Source: Octopus vulgaris (lineage: Eukaryota). Taken from it: 64,000 nucleotides of DNA. Under the pieces are notes generated by a model. That model had not been told where the DNA came from. It saw nothing but the letters and a program-made list of their open reading frames with translations, and searched no databases. The stretch lies in assembly GCA_951406725.2 (NCBI GenBank), contig OX597834.1, positions 10,354,001 to 10,418,000 on the forward strand, read 5' to 3'. Of the stretch, positions 21,741 through 61,083 are shown piece by piece. The first letter of the stretch is position 1. Each line of letters opens with the position of its first letter. The translations under genes were made by a program, and so were the position numbers.

Positions 21741-22138
21741 AGGCGGTGAGCTGGCAGAAACGTTAGCACGCCGGGCGAAATGCTCTGCTGTATTTCGTCT
21801 GCCGCTACGTTCACAGTTCAAATTCCGCCGAGGTCGACTTTGCCTTTCATCCTTTCGGGGTCGAATAAATAAGTACCAGTTACGCACTGGGGTCGATGTA
21901 ATCGACTTAATACCTATGTCTGTCCTTGTTTGTCCCCTCTGTGTTTAGCTCCTTGTGGGTAATAAAGAAATAGGTATTTCGTCTGCCGCTACGTTCTGAG
22001 TTCAAATTCCGCCGACGTCGACTTTGCCTTTCATCCTTTCGGGGTCGATTAAATAAGTACCAGTTACGCACTAGAGTCGGTAGAACCGACTTAATCCGTT
22101 TGTCTGTCCTTGTTTGTCCCCTCTGTGTAAAGAAATAG
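21741..22138 (+). mobile_element. SINE family B, two tandem body units
   Basis: Head GGCGGTGAGCTGGCAGAAACGTTAGC plus two about 170-bp units. TSD GGTAGCTCTAT(A/G)ACAAA. Confidence 0.9.
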
Positions 22139-22360
22139 GTAGCTCTATGACAAAGAAATTATGTTCACAAAGTTTCATGAGACATGAATAAATATATTAT
22201 TTGTCTATGCTAACTTATTCCTAATTCAATTATGTTGCATCATATTATCCTAGCTTGCATTTTTCGTGTATTCATACTAACGACAATAGAAATCAATACA
22301 GGGCGTGATTATTCAATATGTAGATATGTCATGACCGAGTGGCTTAGAAGTTATTTTTAC

Positions 22361-22923
22361 AAAGGCGGCGAGCTGGTAGAAACGTCAGCACGCCGGGCGA
22401 AATGCTTAGCAGTTATTTCGTCTGCCGCTACGTTCTGAGTTCAAATTCCACCGAGGTCGACTTTGCCTTTCATCCTTTCAAGGTCGATAAAATAAGTACC
22501 AGTTACGCACTGGGGTCGATATAATCGACTTAATCCGTTTGTCTGTCCTTATTTGTCCTCTCTGTGTGTAGCCCCTTGTAGGCAGAAAAGAAATAGGTAT
22601 TTGGTCTGCCGTTTCGTTCTGATTTCAAATTCCACCGAGGTCGTCTTTGCCTTTCATCCTTTCGGAGTCGATTAAAAAAGTACCATGTCCTTGTGTGTCC
22701 CCTCTGTGTTTATCCCCTTTGTGGGTAGTAAAGAAACAAGTACTTTCGTCTGCCGCTGCGTTCTGAGTTCAAATTCCGCCGAGGTCGACTTTGCCTTTCA
22801 TCCTTCCGGAGTCGATAAATTAAGTACCAGTTACACACTGGGGTTGATGTAATCGACTTAATCCGTTTGTCTGTCCTTGTTTGTTGCCTGTATGTTTAGC
22901 CCTATGTGGGTAATAAAGAAATA
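22361..22923 (+). mobile_element. SINE family B, three tandem body units
   Basis: Head plus three units (the middle one deleted internally). TSD AGAAGTTATTTT(T/C)AC. Confidence 0.9.
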
Positions 22924-25561: not shown

Positions 25562-26599
25562 TTGCTTTGTTATTGGTAGTTTACGCCTCAGTCTATATTC
25601 TATTTTTGTATAATCATTATAACCTCTAGTAGCTTGGATTGTTACATTAGGCACGAAATACCTATGGCTACTTTGATAACCCATAATCATTCAGATTATC
25701 AACAGATCGAAAACTGTGTTAGAATCGCACATTTCTGTAGTTTCACTGAACACAGAATTCCTCGATAGAAACATGGGAAGAATCAAATGCATGTAGCAGG
25801 TATCGTAGGCGGAATTCAATTTAAAACTTCAAGGAATAAAGCAATGCTTTATTAGGGAATCGCAGCTGTACACGAGTATTGCTTTATGCATTAGAACATA
25901 CAACGATATCAGAGAGCTATCTATGAAGGATTTTATCCTTTATCTGTGGCACCTTTATTAGAAAGATGCAGCCTACAGCAGCATTAAAGCGACCCTATGA
26001 AGTCTGCAGGACATGTTCTGTAGTACATTTATATAACTATCTCATTGAAACGGTTCTAGAGGCTCTGGGAATCTGTCTGTAGAGGAAACAATATAAAGCC
26101 CGGTGATATGATATAAAATGTTACGCTCTTGTTTTGCAGTACCCAGAGAAGTGAAATGAAAGAATTACTAGATTTCTTCCTTTCTTTGTCTATATAACTT
26201 ATTAACATAAGCGATATGAAATATATATCAAAACACGGAATTTAATATAGTTCTTGAATTTCACCTCGATAGAAATTTGCTTCAGCGAACATACAACATA
26301 TTGTTACATGGGAGGCAGTATTTGATCATAGTTATGAAACAAACTTCGATTTATTTGCTTTTGGAACTTTGCTACTCTGCTACAAATAAGTTAATATGTC
26401 CTTTTAAGATAATAAACGCTGAATTCAATATTGTAAACAAACAAACAAACAAACAAAACCGTCCTAACATGCGATATAGAGTTTATAGATGAACAAGAAA
26501 CGCAAAACAATTCATGATTTAAAGAATATTGGAACTGGAGATATCCGTGCATTTGTCTAGGAAAACTGAACTGAAGCAATTCCTACCTAGATATTATAT

Positions 26600-27014
26600 A
26601 TGTCTTTACTACCCACAAGGGGCTAAACACAGAGGGGACAAACAAGGACAGACAAACGGATTAAGCCGATTACATCGTCCCCAGTGCATAACTGGTACTT
26701 AATTTATCGACCCGAAAGGATGAAAGGCTAAGTCGACCTCGGCAGAATTTGAACTCAGAACGTAACGGCAGACGAAATACCTATTTCTTTACTACCGACA
26801 AGGGGCTAAACATAGAAGGGACAAATAAGGACAGACAAACGGATTAAGTCGATTACATCTTCCCCAGTGCGTAACTGGTACTTAATTTATCGACCTCGTT
26901 AGGATGAAAGGCTAAGTCGACCTCGGCGGAATTTGAACTCAGAACGTAACGGCAGACGAAATACGGCTACGCATTTCGCCCAGCGTGCTAACGTTTCTGC
27001 CAGCTCGCCGCCTT
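26600..27014 (-). mobile_element. SINE family B, two tandem body units
   Basis: Reverse complement of the family. 15-bp TSD TACCTAGATATTATA (26584-26598 and 27015-27029). Confidence 0.9.
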
Positions 27015-39950: not shown

Positions 39951-40280
39951 TGCGACAAGATCCAACCAAAGGGAGGAAAGGCGAAAGTAATTGATTTACC
40001 ACTATTATTTAATACAGTTGGGTGTTTTTTGCAAAGGATATGGGGACTATCTTTAGCAATCAGATCGAACCCGTTCGTCCTCCATAATAGTATCACAGTA
40101 GATGGAGAACTGAGACAGCGATATATGTAAATATTGAGTTATGAGAAACTGCACATCCTGAATTCCATTAACAAAAACATTGCCGGAATCTCCTTTGTCA
40201 AAAGCGAAATATTCTTTCTAAATAATCAAATCTCGGAATATATGCTTATAGTGTACGGTTTTTCAGATAAACTATTTAAT

Positions 40281-40549
40281 CATTAACCACCAACGTAAGG
40301 GGTATTAGCCATCTGAATGTGGCTAGCCACTGGGGGGGGGGGGGGTTACTGATGCTTTTAGCCCCAGGCGATCAACGTCACCAGAAGGACCTTAGACACT
40401 ATCTCAGTGCCCTTGTGTTATTTGCAAAGGGAGGTCATCCTCCCTCGAAGACCCGAGTACTACATACGGACTATAGTTTCAAGGTAATTGCCTCTCGTCA
40501 ACGCATGGTAAGCGCCGGTCTTCGACGAAGGAGTCTCCTTGCAAATAAC
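40281..40549 (-). mobile_element. Second, divergent retrozyme-like element (structural homolog of 57565-57879)
   Basis: Same order of motifs downstream of the hammerhead rod (GTGTC(T)AAGG, hairpin, GGGCTAAA(T)AGC, hairpin with CATTNAGN loop). Flanked by an 11-bp direct repeat AACTATTTAAT (40270-40280 and 40547-40557). Confidence 0.6.
40463..40507 (-). ncRNA. Type I hammerhead ribozyme, C3U core variant
   Basis: Minus strand reads CATGCG-TTGACGA-GAGG caatta CCTT-GAAA-C tata G-TC-CGTATG: stem I CAUGCG/CGUAUG, stem II GAGG/CCUU, palindromic stem III ACTATAGT, GUC site. Sits at the tip of an imperfect inverted repeat 40417-40549. Confidence 0.8.
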
Positions 40550-40862
40550 TATTTAATGTTTTTCACAGCAGCCAGTGTCAATTGTTATTTAATCATTGTT
40601 TTCGTGAATTGGTTTATTGTAAACGAGAATGGAAGAAGCGGAACATGTGTGTCTATATGTAAGGAGTTAGTCCGCATTACTCCATAAAGAGCTTGAGGCT
40701 GATTTCTCGGTTTTCTTTGGCGTAGGATTACTCGGTTTTGACAGCTGAGTGTTCTGGACAGACGTGAAATAAAGTGGTCTGCTCAAGAACACAATGCATC
40801 GCTCAGTCTAGGAATCGAAACAGTTATCTTACGAACATGAGTGTAACACCTTAACCACTAGG

Positions 40863-41229
40863 TCCAGTGGTTAGAGCTACGGACTCGCGATCATAGGATC
40901 GCAGTTTCGATTCACAGACCGAGCGTTGTGAGCGTTTATTGAGCTAAACCACCTAAACTCCATGAAGCTCCGGCAGTGGGTGTTGGCGAACCCTGCTGTA
41001 CTCTTTCACCAAACATTTACCCCACTCTTTTCTCCTGTTTCTGTTGTACCTATATTTCAAAGAGCCAGCCTTGTCACACTCTGTGTCAACTGAATCTCCC
41101 GGAGAACTACAAGAAGGGTTACACGTGTCTGTGGAGTGCACAGCCACATGCAAATTAATTGCACGAGCAGGCTGTTCAATTGATCGGATCAACTGGAACC
41201 CTCGTCTACGTAACCGACGGAGTGACACA
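40863..41229 (+). mobile_element. SINE family C copy, head-to-head with a minus-strand SINE relic (about 40690-40862)
   Basis: Matches the family from ccagtggttag onward. The junction forms taaccact..agtggtta. Confidence 0.85.
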
Positions 41230-42781
41230 ATATATTTGCGTACATGACAGTATTTCAAAAGGGAAATTACATCTATTCAAAAGTCCTAAGCATATGCATA
41301 CGATCACATGCATATGGTTTTCTACTGTTTTAAATGGGGTTTTAGGGAGCAAAAGGTATCGGGAAAATTTAGTCTCGGCGTAAAGGTCTTTTATCAGGTG
41401 CGTAAAGAAATGCCAAAGCAAAGGAGGTCATTCGCAGTTCACCGGCAGAAAATTGTATCATGACATGATAGCAGTTCCTTTTCTAATGTACTGGATTATA
41501 CATATATATAAATATATATATATATGTATGTATACATATATATATATAAATATATATATATATGTATGTATACATATATATATATATAAATATATATATA
41601 TGTATGTATACATATATATATATAAATATATATATGTATGTATACATATATATATATATATAAATATATATATGTATGTATACATATATATATATATAAA
41701 TATATATATGTATGTATACATATATATACATATATATAAATATATATATGTATGTATACATATATATATATATATAAATATATATATGTATGTATACATA
41801 TATATATATATATAAATATATATATGTATGTATACATATATATATAAATATATATATGTATGTATACATATATATAAATATGTATGTATACATATATATA
41901 AATATGTATGTATACATATATATAAATATGTATGTATACATATATATAAATATGTATGTATACATATATATATATATATGTATGTATACATATATATATA
42001 TATGTATGTATACATATATATAAATATATATATATGTATGTATACATATATATAAATATATATATATGTATGTATACATATATATATGTATGTATACATA
42101 TATATAAATATATATATATGTATGTATACATATATATATATGTATGTATACATACATATATATATATATTTGTATGTATGTGTATATATATGCATTTGTA
42201 TATATATATGTATGTATATATGTATATATATGTATGTATTAGTTCAGCAGTATTGGTCTTTGCTAGCGTCAGTCAAAAGTTTGTAAAACATCAGTGATAC
42301 AAAAGATTTAAGCAGTTGCAACTTCGTTCCAAATGTTGTTAGGGATAGAAGCGGGACTAAAAAAAGGCCCTACTTTACAATTTCATCTTATGGCAATAAT
42401 AAGATTCACAGACACACGAATGTATGAATTCATGTATATACATGCATATGTAAGTATGTACGCATGCCTGTATTCCTGTATAATATTAATCTATGTTTGT
42501 ACACAAGAAAGCATGCAACTGTATGTATGGGTAGATGTAGCAACGCTTAACATATGTGTTTGTGTATGTAAATGATAATATATGCATAAAAATATACGCG
42601 TGCATGTTATTTCGTGTGAGTTCGAAGCAGTTTTGTTTTGCATACAAAATATTCTCATCGGTCTAAGAATTTGAGAGGAATAATAATGAGGAAACATCGT
42701 AAGATATTCGCTGACAGATCTCTAAAGAATTTTGTGGATAAAGAAAACGGTTAATATTTTTTTGTAAAGCAATGTATCGCC

Positions 42782-42817
<36 letters not shown>

Positions 42818-43315
42818 GTCCAGGCGAAAAGAAAGAGAGAGAAAGAGAAACAAAATATTATTGTAAAGAAGAAGAATATGATTCTGAAATTGTGATATGC
42901 TAGATACGATATGTTTGGCACTATATACTCACGTGCAAGAAAACATCAAATTTTCGAGCGTAACTCATGCAAACTGTGATTGCATATGCTTCGAAATTCC
43001 ATTCCAAGCCCCAGGTTTCTAAGCTATAAAATGGATGAAGAAATCTGTAATGTGTCGTTCAGTGATGCCATCCCTCTTCTTACTTGAAAATATATTCCCC
43101 CTCCAAAACGTACGTATATATGGTAACAAAAAAAAATATCCAAAAATAAAAAGAAAGAAAAAATATAAGAAAAATATTTTAAATTACAACAAAAAAAAAA
43201 TGTAATATTAAATGATGAACAGAAAAAAAAGAGAAAAAGTACTGAAAATGTAGTTGTTTTTTTGTAGTGTTAGTCGTCGTAAATTGTTGTAGTAGTAGTA
43301 ATAAGAACAACAATG

Positions 43316-43355
<40 letters not shown>

Positions 43356-43963
43356 TACTGAGTTGTGTGTTGAAAGATAATAAAACTTGTTGCAACGCAT
43401 CATGCAATGTAATTTTTATGTTAACGTTGTCGTTCGTGAAAAGTTTTTTCCCTTTTCTTTTTCCTTCGGTAATTTATTTCGGCAATAATATTCTAAATTG
43501 GTCAAGAGAATTGACTAAAGTGAAATTGCAGAATTTCATGCGGAAAAATATTTAATATGACACTATGACTATAATAATATTCGGCAAATTTCTTTTTACA
43601 TTTTCTAAAGTAATTACCTTTCATGAACGAAAATTAGATGAATATATACAACAACAACAACAACAAAAAAAAAAGGAATAAAAGAAAAGTGTAAAACAAA
43701 AAAAAAGGGGGTAATTTGTTAATTTTAATGATGATGAACATGAAGTTCTTGATGAAATGTATTGAAATATAACATAATAATAACTACAAAACATAGTAGT
43801 AGGAATGTTAAAAATAGAGATGATAATGATGATGAGACTGAAGATGATGATGATGATAATGATAATAATAATAATAGTAGTAATAGTAATAATAATAATA
43901 ATAATAATAGTAATAAATATAATAGTAGTAATAGTAGCTATAATAATAATAATAATAATAATA

Positions 43964-43998
<35 letters not shown>

Positions 43999-44738
43999 CG
44001 TTATTATTTCTACTGTAAAGACAAGGCCTGGAATTTGCGAGAAGAGACTATGTTGATTTCATCGGCCCCAGTACTCAACTGGTACATATCTCATCGATTC
44101 GGAATCGATGAAAGGCAAAGTCTACACTTTCTTTCTTCTATTATCACAAGGCCTGGAATTCGTGGGAGGGCATGGGCTAAGTCAATCACCGCGTTAATAA
44201 TAATGATAATAATAATAAATATAATAATTATAATAATACTGGTAATAATATCAATAATAATACAGCAGATATTCTGCTGGATACCACAGATTAGCATGTC
44301 AGTTGTTTGACCGTAACCAATTTAGTATGACGATATGGCTGACGATAAGAGTATCTCTGATCAAGAGCAGAAGTAGTGGTGGGGAACATCATAGCCATGC
44401 AATGAGAGTAGTTGTTTGGGCTTTGGATAATTCACCTCTAGAAACATGGGTGTTTCGTTCATTATCCTTCAGTAGCCCTTACATAGGGACATCTTGGTCG
44501 CACTGGTCTATTCGATCTGGAGAAAATCCTACTCGGGCATGAGCTAATTGTTTTAATAGTTTTGGTGCATGTGACTGGTGTACCACAATCAGACATGTAT
44601 ATACTCATGATGGATTACTTAGGCATCGGATATTTTTGTATCGACCATCTCTTTGATTGGCGTGTACTGCTTTCTCACTGATTAATAATATTGATGAAAA
44701 TAAAAAGTCGGTGACTGAGCTGCAATGCAGCTGAGAAA

Positions 44739-44774
<36 letters not shown>

Positions 44775-45019
44775 ACATACCATGATATACACTTAATATA
44801 TCAAAATGGTTTAAAATGTGCTTACTGTAGTATGCACAGGACTACTCATACATCCACTATGCATGTATGCATATATATATATATATATAAGTTCATGAAA
44901 ATTTAGATTCAGATGAATATGGTACTTAAGTTAAAGGCACCAGAATTTAGTATGGTATTATCGATATAATTCAAAATGAGGTGATTATAATCAAAATAAG
45001 CTATCCAGAGGTGTGTATG

Positions 45020-45055
<36 letters not shown>

Positions 45056-45316
45056 TCTGTGAACGGATCGATTTAAATTACTCTTCAGTGCTTGTAGCAG
45101 CCATAGAAAGTGGACATAATTTAACAAATGTATATTATATGCAATATTGCCGGTTATGTTGTAAATGTAGGCAAAACGAGCATTAGTTAAGAACACACAC
45201 ACACACACAGAAACACACAGACACATATGAAGTATATTAGAAGTGTGAATAGAAGATAATGATAAATCACATACTCAGAAGTATTTAGATTCACAAAGAA
45301 AGATAATATATGTACC

Positions 45317-45364
<48 letters not shown>

Positions 45365-45824
45365 TATTTAAATATATATATATGATATATATTTAAATAT
45401 ATATATATATGATATATATTTAAATATATATATATATATGATATATATAAATTAGAGAAAAACCAGTATTATGCAATTCAAACAATGATAGACATAAACC
45501 AAATCATAAATAAAAAAATATATTTTAAAATATAACTAGAACACATATATATATATTCGTTTTCGCATGTTATAATAGACATAATGGGAACTCATAAAAA
45601 TATTTATTAATAAAATATTTCTTAACAAGTTAATTTTTTTTCTTAAATATTTAATATTCTCTTAATATATAAAAGCGAGACACCATTTTAAACGCAACAT
45701 ATATTGCTCATTACATTAAATATAAAGAAATCATTATATTATATAAATATTGATATGTTTTGTGTTTATGCATTATCTTGTGCCCTTACTGATTTTTCGT
45801 ATCACATTTTTTTTTTTCGTCCAG

Positions 45825-46042
45825 GATCTGAAGTTGCTCCCCGAGCTGTTTCAACCCGGATTGTCAGCGGAATTTGGTGGTTCTTCACTCTAATAATGAT
45901 ATCCTCTTATACGGCGAATTTAGCCGCCTTCTTAACCATTGACCGGTTGGATACCACGATTGAGAGCGTCGAAGATCTTGCCAAACAGACGGATGTACAC
46001 TACGGGACATTGGAAGGGGGATCATCTAAACAGTTCTTCGAG
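45825..46042 (+). CDS. Ionotropic glutamate receptor (kainate-type/non-NMDA) internal exon: end of pore loop, M3 helix and start of S2
   Basis: Translates (G)[72 protein letters not shown], containing the iGluR hallmark SYTANLAAF. Acceptor ttttttcgtccag|GA (phase 1), donor GAG|gtaaca (phase 0). 218 bp. Confidence 0.97.
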
Positions 46043-46237
46043 GTAACATTCTTACATTTTATACATTTTATTACCACCTTGGTTTAGCGCACTCTCTCAG
46101 AACATCTATTCATCTATGCCTGTAAATATGTATAAAATAAATGTATGATATATCTTAAGATGTAGTAGACCATCATGAATATAAAATGGGTTTTAAATTT
46201 TGACACCAGACCAGCAATTTCGGAGATGGTAACATAG

Positions 46238-46323
46238 GCCTCGGTAGCGCAGTAGGCAGCGCGTCAGTCTCATAATCCAAAGTTATCGTCGAGCCATCGG
46301 GAGTTCGATCCTCACCCGGGGCA
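46238..46323 (+). pseudogene. Elongator tRNA-Met(CAT) pseudogene with a 13-nt insertion
   Basis: GCCTCGGTAGCGCAGTAGGCAGCGCGTCAGTCTCATAATC...GAGTTCGATCCTCACCCGGGGCA. Acceptor stem GCCTCGG/CCGGGGC and anticodon CAT at 46271-46273 are intact. The 3' side of the anticodon stem is mutated, length is 86 nt versus about 73, and a T9 run follows. Confidence 0.85.
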
Positions 46324-47215
46324 GATTTTTTTTAAAGGCGGTGCTCCAGCATGGCCACAGTCAAATGACTGAAACAAGTAAGCGAGTATAGGTGATTAAG
46401 GCGGCGAGCGGACAGAAACGTTCGCACGCCGGTCGAAATGCTTAACAGTATTTCGTCTGCCGAGGTCAATTTTACCTTTCATCCTTAAAATAAATTACAG
46501 ACGTTCTAATTTACCAAGATTATATAAATAAGCTAGAATTATTCAAAATTCTATTGAAATCTCTCATACATCATTAATCCGTTGCAATTATGATCTATGT
46601 ATTCCCTTATACTAATGTATTTATCAGATGGGGTAAAATTGTCCAATACTGATTGGAAGTTATGGCATAATGCAGACGGAAATTTCTCATAAATGTTAAA
46701 TTTTCTTTACGAATACAGCGTAATCTCTGAAAATTTTCGATTATATAAGGTTTATTTCCATTTATAATGCGTATGGTTTTTAGGGAGAACGTAACTAAAT
46801 CATTCGTCAGTAAATTCTTCTCTTTTACTTGTATTCGTACCGTGTAAGCGTTCTCATTCCAAAGGCCAATGAAACGAAAATTGGGTACAGTGACAGGTCA
46901 TGTTCATAGTCTGCTCTTTTAATGTATAGCAATATAAGCGCACTGCCCTCTTAAGACACGGGCACACTAGGCCTAGGTGTCTCGCAGATATACGGGCCTA
47001 AATTGGATCTATGTCTGCTGTGGCTAGTTGTTGACAAATGAATAATATAGGGTTCATTGCGACGGACCTCGACAAAGTTTACGTCTACAAAATTCACTCG
47101 CAAAGTATTGGTCAGCCAGGGCTTTAGAAGGAGACGTTATACCAAGTGCCGCCCATCAGGACTGAATCTGAAAACGCGTAGTTGCGAAGTAGTCGTCTAT
47201 GCAGCAATGTGTTTT

Positions 47216-47252
<37 letters not shown>

Positions 47253-49394
47253 GGAAAGAGAGGGAGGGAGGGAGAGAGATAGATAGATAGTTATCAATAA
47301 TATATAAATATATGCATATATATTTACATACATGTACATACCTATATATATGTATATATACATGCATATATGGGTGCAGGACATTAAAAAAAAACGAAAA
47401 AACGTTGAACAAAATGAGAAACGAAAACATAAAAACAAAAATAGAAACGAACTTTTTCCCGAACAACGAAAAAATTAAAAACATACAAACAGAGAAACGA
47501 GAAATACAACATAAAGAATATTCCCTTTCTTAAGTTGTCCCTGTTTCAAGTATTCCACGTGTAGAGGGCAAGGACAAGACGCAACTTCTTGAAACAGTCC
47601 TTCCCGCAAATCAAATTAAATAAAATTGGGATTTTTTGCGGAGGGTGAAAGTGGTAACAAGAACAGGACAGTGAGAGCAAAAAAAGTAAAAACAATAAAA
47701 AAATAAAAACAGTAAAAAACAGTACAATGAGAACAAAACAGTAAAAACAAATGGTGAGGGTTGTTAAGCCAAGACGATGGGAAAATTATTCTGAATATTT
47801 AAGAAGACGAGCTTATGAAGGGACAGTATAAGCACGTTTAGTCTTTACGAAGGTAGTAGTCAGAAAGATAGATTCCCTCTCGTCACATGTCAATGACGAG
47901 GGAGCCGAGGAGAAGGAGTGAGAGAGAGGGAGTGGTGAAGTGGAGAGGAGAAGAATAGGGAAGGGTGGGAGAGGAAAGCAGAAAGAATGAAGAACAAGAG
48001 GGGGGGGAAAGATAAACAGAGAAGAGATAGTAAAGATAGAAGAGCGCGCATCGTAATTATTAAGATAAAACTTGGAAAATGATGCGTGGCGTTCGATCAT
48101 ATAATAACATAAATAATATATATATATACGGACACATAAATATATATGTATATAGATATATACTTAGATCGATCGATCGATAAATAGATAGATAGATAGA
48201 GGGGAGAGAGATATAAAGAGAGAGATTTTTTATAATTCAATCTTATGATGTTACATATTTAAAGAAAGGAAATATTAAAAAAGAAAAAAATTAGGCAGTG
48301 AGTTCTAAGTCCCAATGAAGCTATGCGTGTTTTGTTTTTAGTGTAAAACGATTTATGAACAAGAAATATGTGTGTGCGTGTGTAAATATATGTATATATT
48401 TGTGTATGTTTTTGTGCGAATATGTGTGCGTGTTTGAACGTATGTATGTAAGTATGTGTATCTTTTATCCGTGCTATTTGACGGAAGAAAAATCTATATT
48501 TGTATATTGGGAGCTAATATATGTCTGTACTGTACAAAATAACTTTTTCCAGAAAACATACGAAATATAATAAAAAATGAGCTATATTAAATAAAAAAGA
48601 AATCTATAAGGCAATAGCCGAATAAGAATACATATATACAAAACATGATTGTTAGTAATTCCCAAGAAGATAATAATTTTTTTGTCCAAAAAATATATTT
48701 ATAAGAAAATATTATCAACGCTGCTAGATGAAGACAAGAATAGCATTATATTAAGAAAATATAATGTTGAATATTCTTTAATTTTCCGTTTTCCTTATGA
48801 TGGAATGATATCAAACCTTCTTATATGTCTAAACACTTATCCATACAAAAGCAACTGGAAGTAAATGTCATTTTATTTCCCGAAAAACTTGAATGCCTCG
48901 GCATTTTTTAAATAATTTTTCTATAAAATAAAATGATTCGTCGGTATTTTTTCTTAGGCAAAGAAATAATGTAGAATATCCAAATATGATAAAAAAAGAA
49001 ATACCGAAAGAAAAAAGAAAAATAATAAATAAAATACACAAAAATATTTGGAATGGATCCATGCACTTCGCCAGTTTAGCTGTCCTTATTGTTCTTTGAA
49101 ATAACTTTACAAGGCAGACAAATCAATGTATGAAATATTTTCATGATTTGAGAGTCATAATAGTAATGAAAGAAACGATGTAACATCATTAAAGAGACAG
49201 CGTATGTTACGCTTATAGAGGAAACTTCTAAGAAAGCGTTGTGCTTGAATCGTAGTAGACAAAATCTATGATACTAAATACCAAGGCTAGATGCATGCAT
49301 ATAGTGACGCGAATCCACGCTCACAAGCACACATTTAATATGTACGTGTGTGGGCGTAGCTCTCTCTTCCTCTTCCCCTTATTCTCTATATATT

Positions 49395-49840
49395 TAGTGA
49401 ATGCAATTGTCTTCCCAATAGCAACATATGAATGCGAGACCTGGACACTAAAGAAAGCTGACCAGAAGAGAATTAATGCATTCAAGCATTGGTGTTGGAG
49501 AAGACTTTTACGGATTTCATGGACAGCGAGGCTCACCAATGGAGAAGTTCTTACGCAGATCAGGCCGAAAATGTCGCTAGAAAATGTCACCAAGCATAGA
49601 TTGGCATATTTCGGTCATATTATGCGGAGAAAATCCCTGGAGAAAGACATCATGCTCGGAATGGTCCGTGGCAAGAGAGGAAGAGGCCGACCAAGAACCC
49701 ACTGGCTTGACACCATCAAGAGTGATACCGGAATGGACATAGCCAATCTGAAGGAAGCGGCCCAGGATAGCACTGACTGGAGGACACTGATCCAACGAGT
49801 AACCGAGAGACGACTTCGACTGAGCGGATAGATAGATAGT
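49395..49840 (+). mobile_element. RTE-clade LINE 3' fragment
   Basis: VFPIATYECETWTLKKADQKRINAFKHWCWRRLLRISWTAR...YFGHIMRRKSLEKDIMLGMVRGKRGRGRP, the RTE/Bov-B-type C-terminus, followed by a (GATA)n tail. Confidence 0.9.
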
Positions 49841-49857
49841 AGATATAGATGGACGGA

Positions 49858-50232
49858 AGAACTCCGTCGGTTACGACGATGAGGGTTCCGGTTGATCCGA
49901 ATCAACGGAACAGCCTGCTCGTGAAATTAACGTGTAAGTGGCTGAGCACTCCACAGACACGTGTACCCTTAACGTAGTTCTCGGAGATATTCAGCGTGAC
50001 AGAGAGAGTGACAAGGCCGGCCCTTTGAAATACAGGTACAACAGAAACAGGAAGTAAGAGTGAGAGACAGTTGTGGTGAAAGAGTACAGCAGGGATCACC
50101 ACCGCTGCCGGAGCCTCGTGGAGCTTTTAGGTGTTTTCGCTCAATAAACACTCACAACGCCCGGCCTAGGAATCGAAACCGCGATCCTATGACCGCGAGT
50201 CCGCTGCCCTAACCACTGGGCCATTGCGCCTC
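49858..50232 (-). mobile_element. SINE family C copy abutting the RTE tail
   Basis: Full-length reverse-complement match. Confidence 0.9.
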
Positions 50233-50354
50233 CTAGATATAGATATGTAAAGATACGATCCGAGGATCAAGTCAATGAGCTGAAGCAGTCTGCAGAGAAT
50301 ATGAAAAGAATAATAACTCCTTTCAGGGATAATAGTGGTTTATTTTCGCAGGTT

Positions 50355-50747
50355 CTCTTTTACTCTCTTTTACTTGTCTAAGTCATTTGACTGCGCCCAT
50401 GCTGGAGCACCGCCTTTAGTCGAGCAAATAGAACCCCAGGACTTAATATTTGGAAGCCTAGTACTTATTCTATCGGTCTCTTTTGCCGAATCGCTAAGTT
50501 ACGGAGACGTAAACGCACCACCATCGGGTGTCAAGCGATGTTTGGAGAAAACACACACACACACACACAAACACACACATATATACACGATGGGCTTATT
50601 TCAGTTTCCGTCTACCAAATCTACTCACAAGGCTTTGGTTGGCCCAGGATATAGTAGAAGACACTTGCCCAAGGTGCTACGCAGTGGGAATGAAACCGGA
50701 ACCATGTGCTTCGTAAGCAAGCTACTTACCACACAGCCACTTCTGCC
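50355..50747 (-). mobile_element. SINE family A copy
   Basis: Full-length reverse-complement match. Confidence 0.88.
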
Positions 50748-50835
50748 CAGAATGTAGCGATTAGAGGCTTCGAATGACCCCTTCCGTATTTTTTTTTTGG
50801 TCTATTTGAATGTTTTGCGTTCTTGTCCCATTTTG

Positions 50836-50883
<48 letters not shown>

Positions 50884-51107
50884 GGCGTTATTTTTTTGTG
50901 TGCGTGCGTGCGTTCTTGCGCTCGATGGTGCGTGTGTGTGTATGCGCGTATAGGTGTTGGAGTTCTAAAGGAATTGGCAACAAATCTTCTCAACTAATTC
51001 AAAGATATCATTCTACAATACACATGAAATCACTATCTATATCCTCTCGTTTTCTAATTGAAGTGAAAAATACCACTCGCACTCCGAAACAAACACATAT
51101 TTACGTT

Positions 51108-51167
<60 letters not shown>

Positions 51168-51222
51168 TATATCCGCACGTGTTTGTGTGTGTGACAGACA
51201 AGGAAAAGAAGAGAGAAAATGA

Positions 51223-51257
<35 letters not shown>

Positions 51258-52200
51258 CATATATATGCATACTACAAGAGGGAAAGTGCGGATGAAAGAC
51301 ATTTCTTATCATTTTTCCATCCTTTTTGTTGTCATCATCGTATACGAATATAATGACTTTTGTCTTTTTTTATCTAGTTAGGCTATACACAAAAACTAGC
51401 ATTTAACAGTTTCATTTTCTTTGAGACTGTCTCCACGTCGTTTATTTTATCACTAAATACATATAAATACATTTGTATGAACAGTATGCAACACAAGGTC
51501 TTTTATTTCTTATCTTCTTAATGATATAGTGAGCCGTTATAATCTTTTCTAGAATATTACCATTTGATTATTCACTTAATTCTACTTATACAATTTCTAA
51601 GATTTAACATCGTTAAAATATTTGTTTGTTTCCTCGGTCTCCGTTTTTCGCGAATTTTGTGAGATGAAAATACGCGCATATATTCCTAGTAGTGAAATAT
51701 ATATTTGGTGACTTAGCATGGAGACACGTGTGTTTCACAAGTGGGCATATAGTTCTTTGTACAATACGGTAAATAATAATTAGTGATGCACTCAGTTTAG
51801 AGTCGTAGCAAAGGAAAGATACAAGGACAATTTTAGATTTCAATCAAAAATAATTAGCTGAAAACATAGGACGTGTTATCATCCTTGTCACTTCTATGAG
51901 TATATAACTACTGACCGTGGATAAGCCGGGGTCTGTATTGGAGGGAAGGCTCTTAATGCAAAGATCTAAACGGAAGCCTTTACGTTGCTAAAATCCTGAA
52001 GCATGTTTGTGGAAGGCAGGCACATTGGGTGTATTTCTGTAAAGCCATTGACGTATTAGGCGTCATGAACGCTATTTATTTCATTTTCACGTATTGAGAC
52101 AATAAATGATTCATTTACAAAGCAAAATAAATTCGTAAACCTCGTTCTATTTTGGGGTCCCTATTTGTTCTAAATAAAAATATATTCTAAATAAAAATAT

Positions 52201-52625
52201 AGGCACAGGAGTAGCTGTGTGGTAAGTAGCTTGCTAACCAACCACATGGTTCCGGGTTCAGTCCCACTGCGTGGCATCTTGGGCAAGTGTCTTCTACTAT
52301 AGCCCCGGGCCGACCAATGCCTTGTGAGTGGATTTGGTAGACAGAAACTGAAAGAAGCCTGTCGTATATATGTATATATATATAAGTGTGTGTGTGTGTG
52401 TATATGTTTGTGTGTCTGTGTTTGTCCCCCTAGCATTGCTTGACAACCGATGCTGGTGTGTTTACGTCCCTGTCACTTGGCGGTTCGGCAAAAGTTACCG
52501 ATAGAATAAGTACTGGGCTTACAAAGAATAAGTCCCGGGGTCGATTCGCTCGACTAAAGGCGGTGCTCCAGCATGGCCGCAGTCAAATGACTGAAACAAG
52601 TAAAAGAGTAAAAGAGAGTAAGAGA
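52201..52625 (+). mobile_element. SINE family A copy
   Basis: Full-length match. Confidence 0.9.
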
Positions 52626-52895
52626 CAGTGTTAAAATACTAAATAATGGTTCGGCAGTGAGGTCGCTACACCTTTAACACACCGGGTAGAATGCTTAGCG
52701 GCGTTTACGTTCTGAGTTCAAATTCCACTGAGGATAATTTTACTTTTATCCTTTCAGGGTCTGTAAAATAAATATTAGCAGAGAACTGGGGTCGATGTAA
52801 TCGGCTTGACCCTCTCCGGAAATTAATGGTCTTGCGCTAAAATTTGAAATCAATGTTAATTAACGGTTTTATAGTACTTTTGTTGTATTTGTTGT

Positions 52896-53040
52896 ATTGT
52901 TGTATTTAGGAATGGTCATTTTGCCAGTTTAAGATTAATTTAAAAAATAAATAACGCTGAAGCAAAGTAACACCAAATATATAGTGCATGTGTTTTTAAT
53001 TGGCTAAACTGGCAAAATGACCATTCCGAAATACAACAAT
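52896..53040. repeat. Fold-back fragment of the NUMT-insert family: 36-bp inverted repeat
   Basis: 52896-52931 is the reverse complement of 53005-53040 (1 mismatch). The body matches 24507-24615. Confidence 0.8.
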
Positions 53041-53109
53041 ATCTGTTTCAGCACACGATTTCACATCAAAAATCTTGCAAAACAAATATATAAACGTAAT
53101 ATATGTGAC

Positions 53110-53295
53110 CTCGTGAGCACCGCCAGCAATTTCTTTTCCTCTGTCTTCCCTTCTCGGGATCTTTCCTTCTCCTTTGTTTCCGACGAAGAGCTCCGCTGGA
53201 AACGTTAAACCCTCCTTCTTCTTTCCTGAGCGTCCAATAATACTTTATTTGTTCCACGTCCTCGCGTTGCTGTATTTTCTTGTTTGGATTAACTT
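53110..53295 (+). mobile_element. Penelope-like pseudo-LTR fragment with minimal hammerhead motif (53176-53210)
   Basis: GTTT-CCGACGA-A-GAGC tcc GCTG-GAAAC-GT-T-AAAC. The downstream part (ttcctgagcgtccaataatact...tttggattaact) is repeated at 9641-9732. Ends in (TA)n. Confidence 0.65.
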
Positions 53296-54460
53296 TATAT
53301 ATATATATATATATGCTTATAGATATTTGGGTTTGTGTGTACCCAAATGACAATGAGTCCATGACCAATTTTGACAATTAGCATTCAATTAGTTAAATTA
53401 ATGATCTGTTGAATTGATATATGAAGGGCATGAGTACTCAACACACCACCTGCTCTCACTACTTGCACGGATTCCCTTCGACTCTCTGTTGCCATCTTTT
53501 ACTGCACATCATATTTGGTAGGTCAGAAGGACTGCAGTTTATGTCGTCACAAATCTGCTCCCTCTTTCTTTTGTAAGTTCCCACAAAAGAACTTCTCAAA
53601 TGATTTCGTATTTACATCTCTAGTAATGGTATGTTAACCTATGTTCTTTGCTGATGTCTGATACTGAACCAATGGCTTCCATGCGGATACATATTAAAAA
53701 TAACCCACGGAATGACGACCGTGCTCTGCATAGTTACGTGTTGCCATTTGGCAAGGCATAGCACCCATTTAGTAATCCTGCCAGGGATTCGGTGAAATCG
53801 TGGGACCACTGCATCGCGGATTGTGAAGAGGCAGTGGAAATGCTCAAATGAGCCAACGGTGCTCTTACATCGAGGCTCAGCGGGGTTGAGTAATGCTCGA
53901 AACTCAACGACCAGGATCACAATACTCTATCAAGAGTGTTACCGAAACGCACCCATGGGGTCACCGTCGATAGTTGTATAATCAGCTATTGAAAGAGTTA
54001 TTATGATTCAAGTTCTATTTTCATGCACCAGTGAACGCTTAATGACATTTCCAGAGAGAAATAGAGTTATATAGGTTGAAAGATTGATATTTTGAATTAC
54101 ATGGGTGATCGAACTTTAGGCCAGCCAAACAGTTTCCATCTAAACAATTTCTCTCTCGGCACTGAATTCTTCCGAGGCTACCGTAAAAACACTCGGCTAG
54201 ATCGTGAATTTCTTTCATCGGTTATATATCGGCTAGAAAGATTCATGAGCGGTCATTTAAAAAAAAAAAAAAAATCTTTGCTTTTCTATCAAATATAACC
54301 CGGCGCATCAAGAACTGTGACTGTTTCTGCTAAACCATATATGTTCTGTTCGCTATCTATCTATCTATCTATCAAAAAATGCAATATATACAAATATGTG
54401 TGAATGTGGATGTGGTATATATTGTATGTGTGCACATATGAGTAAGTTTGTGGGTGGGTG

Positions 54461-54512
<52 letters not shown>

Positions 54513-54515
54513 TAC

Positions 54516-54820
54516 GTGGGGGCGCAATGGCCAGTCGTTAGGGCAACGTACTCGCGGTCGTAGGATCGAGGTTTCGATTCCCAGACCGGGCGTTGTGAGT
54601 GTTTATTGAATGAAAACACTCAAAGATCCACGAGGCTCCGGCAGGAGGTGTTGGTGGCGATCCCTGCTGTACTCTTTCGCCACAACTTCCTCTCACTCTT
54701 TCTTCTGTTGGCCAGCTCGCTTAGCCAACGAGATGGCGTCATTTGAAGGCTAAACCAATGCGAAGCGCATTGTGACCAGCGATGTTTAACAACATCTGAG
54801 AGCCTGGTTGATCACGTGAT
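54516..54820 (+). mobile_element. SINE family C head with an alternative 3' tail
   Basis: Same head and body up to cacaacttcctctcactctt, then a different tail (ggccagctcgcttagcc...ggttgatcacgtgat). Confidence 0.85.
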
Positions 54821-55009
54821 ACACACACGCACACATATATGAATGAATAATGATAATACACGTACACACACGCCCTCATGCACAGGTACATATATATTTT
54901 GTTTGCGCTTTGTTCATACATCTTCCACTGTTTCATGAATATCATTTTAATCATTTACCTGGAATTCTGCAGTGTTTTATTGAATATTATTCAAATATAT
55001 TTTTTCCAG

Positions 55010-55235
55010 GATTCTGATGTCCCAACATATAAAAAAATGGCAAACTTTATGCAATCCACGACACCGTCTGTGTACGTCTCCTCTTCGCGGGAGGCAGTAC
55101 AGCGAGTACTCAAAGAGAATTACGCTTATCTTGGAGAATCAACATCAATTGATTACCAGGTGCAAAGAAACTGCCAACTTATGCAAGTTGGTGGTTTGCT
55201 GGATTCCAAAGGATACGGAATTGCTACTCCAAGGG
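55010..55235 (+). CDS. Same iGluR gene, S2 ligand-binding domain exon
   Basis: Translates DSDVPTYKKMANFMQSTTPSVYVSSSREAVQRVLKENYAYLGESTSIDYQVQRNCQLMQVGGLLDSKGYGIATPR(G). Acceptor tttttccag|GAT (phase 0, matching the previous donor), donor AGG G|gtaagt (phase 1). 226 bp. Confidence 0.97.
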
Positions 55236-55489
55236 GTAAGTAAGATACGCAGTTTCTGGTCCTTTTTTACAAACTATTCTTCCTCATCGCCTTCTACTTC
55301 TGTGTTAATAATAAGAACATTAACGATAGTTGAGATGCAGATAAAGAAAGAACAAAAATTAGTGGATAACGAAATTGCAGGCAAATTTATTTACATCACT
55401 CTACAATTCCCGTTTTTAATACTTTGAAATTGTACAATATTTAAACTGTGGCTCATTTATACACGCACAAACAAAACCCACACACACTC

Positions 55490-55858
55490 ATTTACTTGTG
55501 ACTGTGGCCATACTGGAGCATCGCTTTAGTCTAGCAAATCGACCCCAGGACTTATTCTTTGTAAGCCTAGTACATATTCTATCGGTCTCTTTTGCCGAAC
55601 CGTTAAGGTTGTCAAGCGATGTAGGAGGGCACACACACACAAACACACACACATATGTATCTATATATATATATATATCTATATGCATATATATGACGGG
55701 TTTCTTTCAGTTTCCGTCTACCAAATCCACTCAAAAGATTTTTGGTTGGCCCGGGGCTATAGTAGAAGACACTTGCCCTTGGTGCCACGCAGTGGGACTG
55801 AACCCGGATCAATGTGGTTCGTGAGCAAGCTAATTACCGCACAGCCACTTCTACGCCT
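55490..55858 (-). mobile_element. SINE family A copy
   Basis: Reverse-complement match with small deletions, about 255 bp downstream of the S2 exon. Confidence 0.88.
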
Positions 55859-55863
55859 ATACA

Positions 55864-55899
<36 letters not shown>

Positions 55900-56449
55900 T
55901 ATATATACATACAAACACACATGCATACAGACACACACACACATATATATATATACTGCATGTAGATACTTTATTCATCAATTGATATAAACCTATCTCA
56001 CGGCAAAAGAAGCGAAAGTATCTAGAAAGGCTATAGCTACTCCTTTGCTTCGTGTATAAGAATATCAAATGGATATTCACTAAGAACCGCTTTGGGTTTC
56101 TGACTTACGCCGTATCAAAGGTTATGGCCCTCAAGGAATTTCATGCAAATTAATCAAATAAGGTTGTTGTTTATTTAATTCAATACCTGTTATTGCCAGC
56201 TAATTAGTATTTGAATTAACGCAATTTTTTATGAATAATTAAAGTGTTACAAAATTACATTAGCATATTGATTCAAAACTGAACAGAATAAAAATTAAAG
56301 AATATATAGGTAAATGAAAATATTAAGCAATTATATTGCGGAGGAAATTTATTAGTAATTAGAAATACGTCACTGAATTGTGAAATATTCAATCGCAGTT
56401 TTGCAACCTTGTCACGGATGCAATTATGCTGCATTTGAGATGGTCCGTT

Positions 56450-56759
56450 TTGTTTGCTCCTTCTCGAGCCATGCCTGGCTCATTAGGGCCGGATTTCCGG
56501 TTTCCTTGGCGGCGTGTAGGTTCCCCTCCTGGACGGGTCGCCGGTCCGTCGCAGGTGAGCTGCAAGATGCAGGAGGGAAAGAGTGAGAGAAAGTTGTGGC
56601 GAAAGAGTCAGTAGAAGTTAATCATTACCTTTGAGGCCGGAGCCGCGTGGAGCTTAGGTGTTTTGCTCATAAACACACACATCGCCCGGTCTGAGATTCG
56701 AACCCGCGATCCATCGACCGCGAGTCTGCTGCTCTAACCACTAGGCCATGTGCCTCCAC
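56450..56759 (-). mobile_element. Family C-related SINE with a third tail type
   Basis: tRNA-like head at 56690-56759 and shared gagtgagagaaagttgtgg. The tail resembles 7975-8065. TSD AGATGGTCCGTT. Confidence 0.85.
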
Positions 56760-57405
56760 AGATGGTCCGTTGAAGGATATTGTCCACGATGTAACAATTT
56801 ACATCTGTCATTCGCAACACTAACCCACAATACTGGTTTTGCACCTCCCTTCATTAATACTCAAATGGAAATTAAGTTTTATATGCCTTTCATTTAAGTT
56901 CGATGCAACGAATAGTTTATACTATGGCTGTGTGGATAAGAGGCTTGCTTTGCAACCATGTGGTTTTGGGTTCAGTTCTAGTATGTGGCACCTTGGGCAA
57001 GTGTTTACTTCTATATGAAATTTATGTCACTTATTTTACTCTTTGTTTTGAGACGTCTTCGCTTTTGTAATTCATCCCGTCTCAGTATAATAACAAAATA
57101 TGGAAATCCAGCCAGTCATCTATACCACCTCTGAAACTATCCTACTACGTACTCAGTAAATATATTTATCTCTAAGATTATTATTTTCGGATTGCCCAAG
57201 GGACAACTTTACGTCAGAGCGATAAAATATTCTCTGTCCATATCAGACAATTGTAAAATGAAACAATCATAAAGTCAATATAACATTTATTACTGTTTCT
57301 TAAATGCGTAGATATGACATTACTATTGCGAAGTTTTTAAATTTCAATAAGGTCTCATTTCAAGTCACATTCTAAAGAAGTATTTGTCCGATGTATCTCT
57401 CTAAT

Positions 57406-57517
57406 TCACATTAAGTTGATAGTATGCAACCACTCTATCGCTCCAACACCGCACATATCTCTGAGATATTTAGAAATTTAATATTTCTGAATTTGGTGAT
57501 CAGTGAATAAACTTCAC

Positions 57518-57573
<56 letters not shown>

Positions 57574-57879
57574 TACGAAGTCTAGACACATATCTTCAGC
57601 TAGCAGGCCTTGCTACTCTAGACTGATGATGGGCAAGACCCAGAAACATGTATGTCTCTAGATGCAGGCCTAGCTGTTGGGGCTGTTTGTCTCCCCTTCG
57701 TAAATATATAAGGATATAGGAAATGTGTCAAGGCCGGCAGGAAGCGTCGATGCTTCCTAGGGCTAAATAGCGGTGGTGTCATTCCATTTACGGGACTGTC
57801 ACATTAAGTTGACAGTATACAACCACTCTATCTCCACCACCGCACATATCTCTATGAGATATTTAGAAATTTAATATTT
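57406..57879 (+). mobile_element. Retrozyme-like small non-coding element: about 393-bp unit plus about 80-bp terminal redundancy, containing the hammerhead
   Basis: Imperfect direct repeats at 57406-57486 and 57799-57879 (tcacattaagttga...gagatatttagaaatttaatattt). Between them: (TA)n, the hammerhead rod and several hairpins. No ORF. Confidence 0.65.
57617..57662 (+). ncRNA. Type I hammerhead ribozyme with intact catalytic core, sense to the iGluR intron
   Basis: TCTAGA-CTGATGA-TGGG caaga CCCA-GAAA-CAT gt ATG-TC-TCTAGA: stem I TCTAGA/TCTAGA, core CUGAUGA, 4-bp stem II, GAAA, short stem III, GUC triplet (predicted cut after C57656). Stem I extends imperfectly out to about 57565/57710. Confidence 0.88.
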
Positions 57880-57915
57880 ACGAATAAATATATAGATTAT
57901 AATTTACTATCATAT

Positions 57916-57963
57916 GCCTTGTTAGTGGATTTGTGAGACGGAAACTGAAAGAAGCCTGTCGTA

Positions 57964-58014
<51 letters not shown>

Positions 58015-58238
58015 GTGTTTGTTTGTGTGTCTGTGTTTGTGTGTCTGTGTTTGTCCCTCTAGCATTGCTTGACAACCGATGCTGGTGTGTTTGTGTCTCC
58101 GTTACTTAGCGGTTCGGCAAAAGAGACCGATAGAATAAGTACTAGGCTTACAAAAGTATAAGTCCGGGGTCGAGTTGCTCGATTAAAGGCGGTGCTCCAG
58201 CATGACCGCAGTCAAATGACTGAAACAAGTAATAGAAT
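57916..58238 (+). mobile_element. SINE family A copy, 5'-truncated
   Basis: Begins at gccttgttagtggatttg and runs to the tail. Confidence 0.88.
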
Positions 58239-58597
58239 ATGTTTATGTATACATGGCTGTTCCTTTCTGTAATTACAACAAAATTTGAAGGTAATCAATA
58301 AATGAAAGAATAATGGTATAAATTATCCTACTTTATCAGGTATTAATCATTTACGAATGTCTATTATATTTAAAATGTTATTTCTTTCGAGACTGTATAC
58401 ATTTCAGCACTTTTGACAATAATCTCGCTCCATCATTCTAGGTGTAGTAAGCCTCCTTTAGATTCAAACTCCGATTTTGGTGAACAGTTGTCAGTTACAA
58501 AATTCTAGTGTATAATAGTTTAGCCAAGATAATCGCTTTTGCTTTTGTTACGTTGCAAATAATTATTGTGTCTTTTCTTTTGTTATATTTTAAACAG

Positions 58598-60615: not shown

Positions 60616-61083
60616 TCATACTTTTCAATATGTCCTTTAGTGTATATTAAACACAGTTCATCTGTCTGTTAGTTCATACACACACTCACACACAGAAACA
60701 GGGACACACATACATATATATACACACGCACACACATGCATATAAATTCGTAAAGACATGTTTACGTTCAGTGAATCATTCGCTTAGTGCTCGACGTATG
60801 ATTTGGGGTGAAATTAAAACTAAAACTACGATACTTTGGGTGCTGTCCTCTGTCGGATATGTAGATGAAATTCCAGAACTGAGGAAAAGGAGAAGGGTAT
60901 AGGAGATTGGAAGGGGCAGAAAAAATACGATCCCGTAGGTACGTGATCGAAAACTCTACTGACCATTCCAATATGGCAGTCCAGAAATATAGGACTAATG
61001 CCGCCATTGATTAGCTCCAAAGCTAATCATTAGTCCTATATTTCTATTTCCTATATTTCAATACTCCATCACAGCGTTACTTA

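Follow-up and report, generated by a model that had tools for sequence, protein, structure and literature searches.

Among described systems, the closest to the elements treated here are the metazoan retrozymes without long terminal repeats (LTRs), with which they share tandem non-coding units of about 350 bp at 41-45% G+C, one type I hammerhead per unit with a short palindromic stem III, strong self-pairing, and the presence of active Penelope-like elements in the genome (PMC7229834, available in part; bioRxiv 10.64898/2026.07.22.740005). The way in which animal retrozymes move has so far been hypothetical, deduced from their occurring together with Penelope-like elements and, for frogs, from similarity of sequence, and a review states, in its available part, that their repeats show no conserved motif pointing to a partner (PMC7761336). 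Here we describe retrozymes of Octopus vulgaris from two copies in a 64,000-nt stretch of contig OX597834.1 (the window, within which positions are counted), with repeats counted across the 2.8 Gb genome. A preliminary description had called these copies at 40281-40549 on the minus strand (E1) and at 57565-57825 on the plus strand (E2).

Our reading, to which we would give a probability of roughly 70%, is that these retrozymes carry a promoter of small nuclear RNA (snRNA) type, cut themselves, and are copied by a Penelope-like (Neptune-type) system into (TA)-rich DNA from two points. The retrozyme class is already known, and what appears to be new here is the shared fold, the two fixed ends, the promoter-like motif and the targeting by a long interspersed element (LINE). 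A literature search that left Repbase, Dfam and some supplements outside its scope found no cephalopod retrozyme and none with a shared fold and fixed ends, and neither 'ribozyme' nor 'hammerhead' occurs in the text or supplement of a 2026 Octopus repeat annotation (PMC13282606).

Judged by sequence, E1 and E2 are truncated copies of tandem, type I hammerhead, non-LTR retrozymes. All the motifs listed for them in the preliminary description lie where it placed them, including the long rod tipped by a GUC type I hammerhead, whose core we read by eye in both copies. The two were also rightly held to be related despite their low identity, since their alignment (145 identical positions) scores 104 against 53 +/- 10 for shuffled sequences (best of 300, 83), far enough above to indicate homology. 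The extent given for E2, on the other hand, was too short, as the element runs from 57407 to 57879, makes up 1.23 units of about 365 bp and has an 87-bp direct repeat at its termini (57406-57492 and 57799-57885). E1 amounts to 0.87 of a 352-bp unit and is without the 3' strand of P3, the longest shared helix. An 11-bp repeat at the base of its rod was considered as a target duplication and rejected, being part of the element. The features of E1 are:

40285-40580, minus strand: E1, lineage A retrozyme copy of 0.87 unit, its 5' end cut within the promoter motif.
40418-40548, minus strand: rod, a long helix with the hammerhead at its tip.
40515-40526, minus strand: predicted transcription start (+1 at 40526) and LINE target site, placed by homology to family copies.
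40463-40507, minus strand: type I hammerhead with U3-G8 core and palindromic stem III; predicted cut 40469/40468.
40395-40411, minus strand: hairpin H1.
40360-40393, minus strand: two-stem hairpin P2, covering AAGG, hairpin 2 and GGGCT of the preliminary description.
40345-40351, minus strand: 5' strand of helix P3, whose partner strand is absent from E1.
40306-40325, minus strand: hairpin P4, earlier called hairpin 3.
40292-40302, minus strand: fixed end point 1 (40292), 14 nt past P4, the putative first start of reverse transcription.
40273-40284, minus strand: 12-bp repeat with a second copy at 40586-40597, a possible target-site duplication of E1.

Those of E2 are:

57407-57879, plus strand: E2, lineage B retrozyme insertion of 1.23 units of about 365 bp.
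57499-57506, plus strand: motif resembling the proximal sequence element (PSE), as in U1 and U2 promoters, 93 bp from +1.
57522-57569, plus strand: expanded (TA)n run inside E2.
57592-57600, plus strand: putative transcription start and LINE target site.
57617-57662, plus strand: type I hammerhead with standard core; predicted cut 57656/57657.
57713-57764, plus strand: hairpins H1 (57713-57729) and P2 (57731-57764).
57770-57843, plus strand: helix P3 of 9 bp, in which 57770-57778 pairs with 57835-57843.
57782-57795, 57796-57815 and about 57829, plus strand: inside P3, respectively hairpin P3a, hairpin P4, and end point 1 on an AC-rich strand.
57846-57879, plus strand: 'tail', with hairpin P5 (57846-57862) and end point 2.

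Both copies are probably dead, having one hammerhead each and a damaged promoter: E1 has lost the front of the motif, while in E2 the motif is displaced, its 93-bp distance from +1 being due to the TA expansion.

Compared with the type I consensus core (PMC3088659, available in part), the core of E2 is fully standard and that of E1 has U3 opposite G8 and, in addition, a G-U pair under stem II. Of 175 cores, 171 have positions 3 and 8 paired (C-G in 74, U-G in 64 and U-A in 33). Stem III is palindromic in the families, a trait of hammerheads that act as dimers (PMC4209133, available in part), and self-cleavage into unit-length RNAs is predicted.

The preliminary description allowed that the elements might be single-copy; they are instead dispersed in over a thousand copies per lineage. 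First-look searches gave 1779 candidates for lineage A (E1 as query), 3305 for B (E2 as query) and 2608 for D, and the top copies in the E1 and E2 searches were 89-98% identical (40 candidates scored each). Exact patterns recovered 2238 copies of a central motif, 882 B-type and 1047 A-type hammerheads, with none for the reversed controls. The two subfamilies proposed earlier are confirmed as lineages A (E1) and B (E2), but a third lineage, D, also exists. It was found, together with subfamilies, by profile search of fetched loci, and a fragment of it covering the P2-P4 region lies in the window itself:

60939-61019, minus strand: lineage D fragment, by profile match (E 7e-10).

A, B and D are only 43-53% alike, and a fourth group, C, is the sister of A. 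Retrozyme criteria ask for tandem units of 150-400 bp with G+C under 45-50%; the tandem units here measure 352 bp in A, about 365 bp in B and 361 bp in D, at 45%, 41% and 43% G+C, respectively. They are non-coding and without LTRs, and the identification as multi-copy retrozymes with units of 352-365 bp therefore stands. Insertions longer than one unit are frequent (18/26 in A, 11/30 in B and 13/25 in D). Longer 'units' suggested by motif spacings of 1.38 and 1.63 kb turned out to be local duplications including flanking DNA, and a 3.6-kb spacing the duplication of a fragment. The nearest named protein relatives of elements in this genome are from Octopus bimaculoides and Argonauta hians. None of 20 sequencing runs containing part of a lineage A array is on record as RNA; contigs from four runs, three of them presumed RNA and the fourth unlabelled, cover 22-29 of the 29 bins, which is no evidence of transcription or circles.

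Behind the rod, the lineages share an ordered fold consisting of H1, the two-stem hairpin P2, the 9-bp helix P3, and the hairpin P5, where P3 closes a junction holding the small hairpin P3a, P4 and an unpaired strand. Folding is stronger than in shuffles for the E1 and E2 regions (z = -3.0 and -4.5) and for circular units (z = -7.7 in A, -6.8 in B and -3.8 in D; 60 shuffles), and the minimum-energy circle of lineage B contains these helices. In an alignment made from sequence only (35 copies), 16 of 31 pairs are changed on both sides against 1-9 for slid registers; the B and D copies (n = 19) give 15 of 42, including 7 of 9 in P3, again against 1-9. Between the majority states of B and D, 43% of columns differ and all 10 double changes pair (null 2.3, P = 5e-5); for B versus A the figure is 8 of 12 (P = 0.001) and for B versus C 8 of 11. 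The earlier claim of RNA-structure covariation thus holds between lineages, but not for single downstream pairs in a tree-aware test, so that the fold in its entirety is well supported, whereas its individual pairs are unproven.

Several details of the earlier model need revision. The apparent covariation of hairpin 1 reflects decay in the E2 copy, whose GATAT stands where the family has GACAC, and (T)AAGG and GGGCT, taken to be conserved linkers, are mostly the two strands of one helix. Nor were loops kept while stems changed: invariant columns over the four groups make up 36 of 78 in stems versus 16 of 70 unpaired, and the loops are hence not the conserved part. For instance, the GUYGAU loop becomes GAUG in groups C and D. 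The idea of conserved loops as sites for the reverse transcriptase (RT) is, in that form, not supported; conservation is seen in the geometry of the helices and in how far away the first end point lies.

A similarity of this kind could also be inherited from an old satellite or short interspersed element (SINE) spread as DNA, with no current selection on RNA structure, and it is true that no single downstream pair is significant and that the signal comes from only three deep lineages. However, 32-34 of 39 pairs are retained although the lineages disagree in about 45% of aligned columns, covariation links positions 3 and 8 of the core, and the dispersed insertions with fixed ends imply an RNA intermediate. 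We consider this explanation very improbable.

The outer 3' ends of insertions fall mainly at two points, measured in nucleotides from the hammerhead cut. In A they lie at 170-175 (21/43) or 211-223 (18/43), with four overlapping loci merged; in B at 171-179 (5/38) or 223-235 (29/38); and in D at 177-178 (7/32) or 227-238 (23/32), the query favouring point 2 in the counts of B and D, and a number of B loci looking like segmental duplicates. One or the other point accounts for 39/43 ends in A, 34/38 in B and 30/32 in D, and the two are 44-56 nt apart. Moreover, 5' inversions occur in 17/26 insertions of A, 8/30 of B and 7/25 of D, and in 13 of the 17 inverted insertions of A each of the two points marks one end. 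A TA or CT repeat adjoins 53 of 113 ends (27/43 in A, 15/38 in B and 11/32 in D), most of the others being AT-rich. In vitro, reverse transcription by a purified Penelope-like protein begins at either of two internal sites, and an optional tail of 30-40 bp results from this (PMC11167929); a two-start tail, inverted 5' copies and microsatellite targets are traits of Penelope-like elements (PMC8557442, available in part). The two ends, the inversions and the TA-rich targets together make up this 'tail' signature, and a Penelope-type mover is likely; the mobilisation proposed in the preliminary description thus gains direct support from the insertion sequences.

End point 1 is a single alignment column in the three lineages, always 14 nt past P4 although the letters differ, and for this reason the domain of H1, P2, P3 (with P3a and P4) and P5 may be the device with which a Penelope-type protein binds the RNA and measures from it. 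We regard the odds on this as about even. Its main rival accepts Penelope-moved retrozymes but has the domain serve a host RNA-binding protein, stability or ribozyme control, with the fixed end arising from A/T-rich priming. The Penelope-like ends examined are without such a fold, some retrozyme ends match the flanking TA or CT repeat over a short stretch, and a newt repeat RNA occurs in a host ribonucleoprotein (PMC2837043, available in part). Against this, local sequence explains poorly why end point 1 should keep to one column across three lineages, and we think such a host role unlikely, although it deserves more weight than the other rivals.

Young elements with RT and GIY-YIG endonuclease are also present in the genome. 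Their 781-codon frames are intact, and their copies, too, have two end points beside (TA)n. These elements have the zinc-finger linker of Neptune and Nematis, which places them by motif, not by tree. In Neptune-type copies the end lies 62-73 or 111 nt past a minimal hammerhead; in a second Penelope-like family, likewise beside (TA)n, the distance is 137 or 169-170 nt. In the young Neptune-type family (L091:1245-3590 on the plus strand, L072, L075), the RT frame is overlapped on its upstream side by another open frame, and the optional tail measures 38 nt; a CUC...GAG hairpin in one such tail was considered as a match to P5 and is too short to count. The second family (L098:826-3985) shows an inverted arrangement, a larger minimal hammerhead and a 30-nt tail, while another locus (L341:3225-4113) has frames that look by eye like a further Penelope-like clade, with a C-terminal endonuclease without zinc linker.

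It could be argued that the octopus units are solo or tandem pseudo-LTRs of a missed autonomous Penelope-like element, and the fold its terminal structure. The units do have every feature of a Penelope-like end, Xenopus retrozymes are related to Penelope-like terminal repeats (bioRxiv 10.64898/2026.07.22.740005), and scoring covered the best 150 of 6136 endonuclease candidates. In disagreement with this, the arrays repeat the unit alone, and the ends of the Penelope-like elements inspected here are AT-rich with a minimal hammerhead 62-170 nt from the end, not 172-235. No unit was matched as a terminal repeat among the 60 Penelope-like loci examined, a set that is not exhaustive, and this agrees with the preliminary description, in which such a match was the alternative. 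The domain profile was strong in two of these loci, both of them separate insertions beyond the element's (TA)n end. Penelope-like fragments lie in 7 of 110 other loci and are not joined to a unit in the four inspected. Altogether, a pseudo-LTR origin seems improbable.

An ATCAG-type motif is found at -56 to -59 in all 27 distinct U1 upstream regions (30 loci) and in three U2 regions. Counted from the LINE insertion site, the retrozyme motif stands at -57 to -59 in A1, C, D and two B contexts. With a matrix built from eight snRNA promoter classes, this position ranked first on the sense strand in all three units, with the best score at -58 in A and -57 in D (P = 0.0005, 0.003 and 0.0005 for A, B and D). 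Further indications come from leaders captured by the inserted elements. LINE copies in U2 genes begin with a 14-nt leader identical at 13 of 14 positions to an A-group start, and therefore the donor RNA would have begun there; of the ORF1-only copies, one bears the initial 19 nt of U1 and another the start of a different B subfamily. The most plausible reading of these leaders is as the 5' ends of donor RNAs begun at the +1 of the host, and a built-in snRNA-type promoter likely drives the units. Such a promoter has been reported for newt satellite 2 (PMC2220036, available in part). At the rod base we also noted an octamer-like motif (L382, L164), perfect in group C and 7/8 in the others, and at least 25 U1 snRNA genes are clustered on one contig (L387-L404, L408, L411-L415).

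The predicted start is also where other elements insert. In 3 of 50 motif loci the rod contains a 1.65-kb insert. This ORF1-only element has 460 codons, encodes a zinc knuckle and resembles the half-L1 elements (HAL1). Its tail has 72 exact matches, and 46 of 69 sites examined directly precede a retrozyme; about nine more show, by eye, a copy of the target and then a nested element. The insertions enter hosts of A, B, C and D type 19-36 nt before the core, and their target duplications of 15-20 bp match each host where the upstream junction is available. The same site is used by a LINE of 5.5 kb whose 1129-codon frame for endonuclease, RT and zinc finger is intact, seen for instance at:

L376:1113-4499, minus strand: LINE with intact ORF2; further copies in L344-L372, L360 and L361.

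Of its 41 matches, 30 were fetched, and 20 of these stand before a retrozyme hammerhead, four are nested there, four lie at U2 starts, one lies elsewhere and one is truncated. The retrozyme site thus accounts for 24/30 copies and U2, identified by Rfam, for 4/30, where the Tx1-clade criterion is more than 20% in one target. Seven of nine full copies are 98-100% alike. Pfam finds an APE-RT-zinc finger ORF2 and a knuckle ORF1, and the element is hence L1/Tx1-type by domains, not by tree. The literature search described above, with the same scope, found no LINE aimed at a retrozyme.

Related insertions were seen at this and at other targets. The ORF1-only elements at the retrozyme site, about 1.65 kb long, comprise at least two protein families and are often nested one behind the other (L179:1666-3048 and L171:1643-3034, both on the minus strand; L193, L203, L221, L229, L324, L325). 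A second LINE family with a 1134-codon ORF2 (L232-L255, L301) seems to be a sister system with another target, as an abundant SINE head follows its 3' end in most of 24 loci; L205/L211, considered as the ORF2 partner of the ORF1-only element, belongs to another LINE, one inserting in SINE heads. In a further repeat (L174, L197, L232), insertions of the ORF1-only element and of the SINE-targeting LINE lie at nearly one spot. L373/L374 is a palindromic lineage A insertion with a full LINE per arm, about 14 kb in total. In one palindromic locus the LINE copies agree at 99.9%, and the host arms show two or more differences close to their ends, which favours separate insertions.

The youth of the LINE and its close tie to the units might suggest that the units are moved by it as SINE-like partners. 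However, they are without the LINE 3' tail, and the LINE makes its duplications (15-20 bp where scored) inside units, whereas the units end at two internal points beside (TA)n; this possibility is remote, even less probable than the satellite. Units bearing a LINE might themselves be moved by the Penelope-like system, as inversions inside the inserted element were seen in 4 of 20 loci, but LINEs also invert by themselves. In our reading the LINE is a promoter parasite, not the mover of the units. A more daring view joins these observations: the units would be snRNA-like genes with a scaffold in the style of telomerase RNA, which recruits the telomerase-related Penelope-type RT and fixes its start 14 nt from a hairpin without sequence shared with the RT's own element, and the LINE would find retrozymes and U2 by promoter position, guided by a promoter-binding complex and not by target sequence, giving three tiers of mover, ribozyme circle and promoter parasite. 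All of this is tentative, and as a whole we think it rather more doubtful than the measuring function.

The preferred reading, in which Penelope-type proteins copy promoter-driven, self-cutting retrozymes, can be put as a series of steps. The PSE-like motif of one unit would start transcription about 25-36 nt before the core of the next hammerhead. RNA spanning two hammerheads would be cut to a monomer, which may be ligated or circularise. A Penelope-type protein would then nick (TA)-rich DNA and copy the RNA from point 1 or point 2, the domain H1, P2, P3 (with P3a and P4) and P5 being what it might bind and measure from, and copying of a multimer or circle could yield insertions longer than one unit, often 5'-inverted.

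A number of observations weigh against this reading. The promoter motif was chosen after being seen in the retrozymes; it stands at -50 to -54 in 5 of 11 contexts, two of them weak, its matrix score is low in two B subfamilies (0.4 and 3.2), and in B the minus strand outscores the sense strand because the motif lies in an inverted repeat. Rfam reported no hammerhead or other family in E1, E2 or four family loci, and in Xenopus 8 of 9 predicted retrozymes failed to cleave in vitro (bioRxiv 10.64898/2026.07.22.740005). The tree-aware test (44 of 123 full-length copies, non-redundant at 93%) gave E < 0.05 for 3 of 49 pairs, all in the hammerhead, and for none of the 40 downstream pairs (best E 0.075), although with only three deep branches it has little power. 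In the A group alone, 4 of 34 pairs are changed on both sides, a number matched by 143 of 500 shuffles. The skew of the B and D end counts belongs here as well, as does the finding that none of the 60 Penelope-like loci has the retrozyme domain in its own end, which leaves the partner family unmatched.

Elsewhere in the window, 46238-46323 (plus strand) matches tRNA in Rfam above the gathering score and is probably a SINE head. Multi-copy SINE-like families occupy 1333-1657, 3041-3453, 21748-22923, 26599-27009, 40861-41223, 50043-50746, 52197-52620 and 57914-58239. (TA) and (TG) microsatellite tracts are numerous, and the whole-window Rfam matches are mostly microsatellite.

In comparison with the metazoan retrozymes described so far, whose reports hold no cephalopod case in the parts available, the octopus lineages differ from the statement of PMC7761336 (available part) in sharing a fold and two fixed end points. 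Their cleavage is a prediction from sequence and their circles a possibility, and the sequence link to a Penelope-like terminal repeat known for Xenopus retrozymes was not found for the octopus units in the 60 loci examined. Their insertions bear the Penelope two-start signature tied to a conserved fold in three half-identical lineages, so that RNA features and start sites can now be tested with purified protein, for which the same genome offers young, intact candidates. With Penelope-like elements (Poseidon of Anolis, PMC11167929; Neptune, PMC8557442 and PMC4209133, both available in part) they share two internal starts with an optional tail and, from the available parts, inverted 5'-truncated copies, AT-rich or microsatellite targets, and type I hammerheads including a U3-A8 core. 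They differ from what is described there in having no reading frame, a tail of 44-56 nt versus 30-40, and a full-size hammerhead on a long rod where Penelope-like elements have a minimal one.

Newt satellite 2 is likewise a hammerhead repeat, of about 330 bp, and is reported to have an internal snRNA-type promoter (Coats, Zhang and Epstein 1994, via the available part of PMC2220036); by comparison, the octopus promoter is deduced from motif, spacing and captured leaders, the motif and leaders pointing to the likely transcription start. The octopus LINE resembles the Tx1-clade LINEs (Tx1L in Tx1D, Keno in U2, and Tx1-Mar; PMC4494074 and PMC4640811, available in part) in its APE-RT-zinc finger ORF2, zinc-knuckle ORF1, target duplication, and insertion in a multicopy RNA gene or another mobile element. 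Relative to the available descriptions of that clade, it differs in that its targets are a hammerhead retrozyme and position +1 of U2, one spot in otherwise unlike host sequences. The site of Keno, by contrast, lies presumably inside U2. A LINE that inserts at the same point in unlike sequences and in U2 genes hence provides a test case for promoter-guided targeting by L1/Tx1-type elements.

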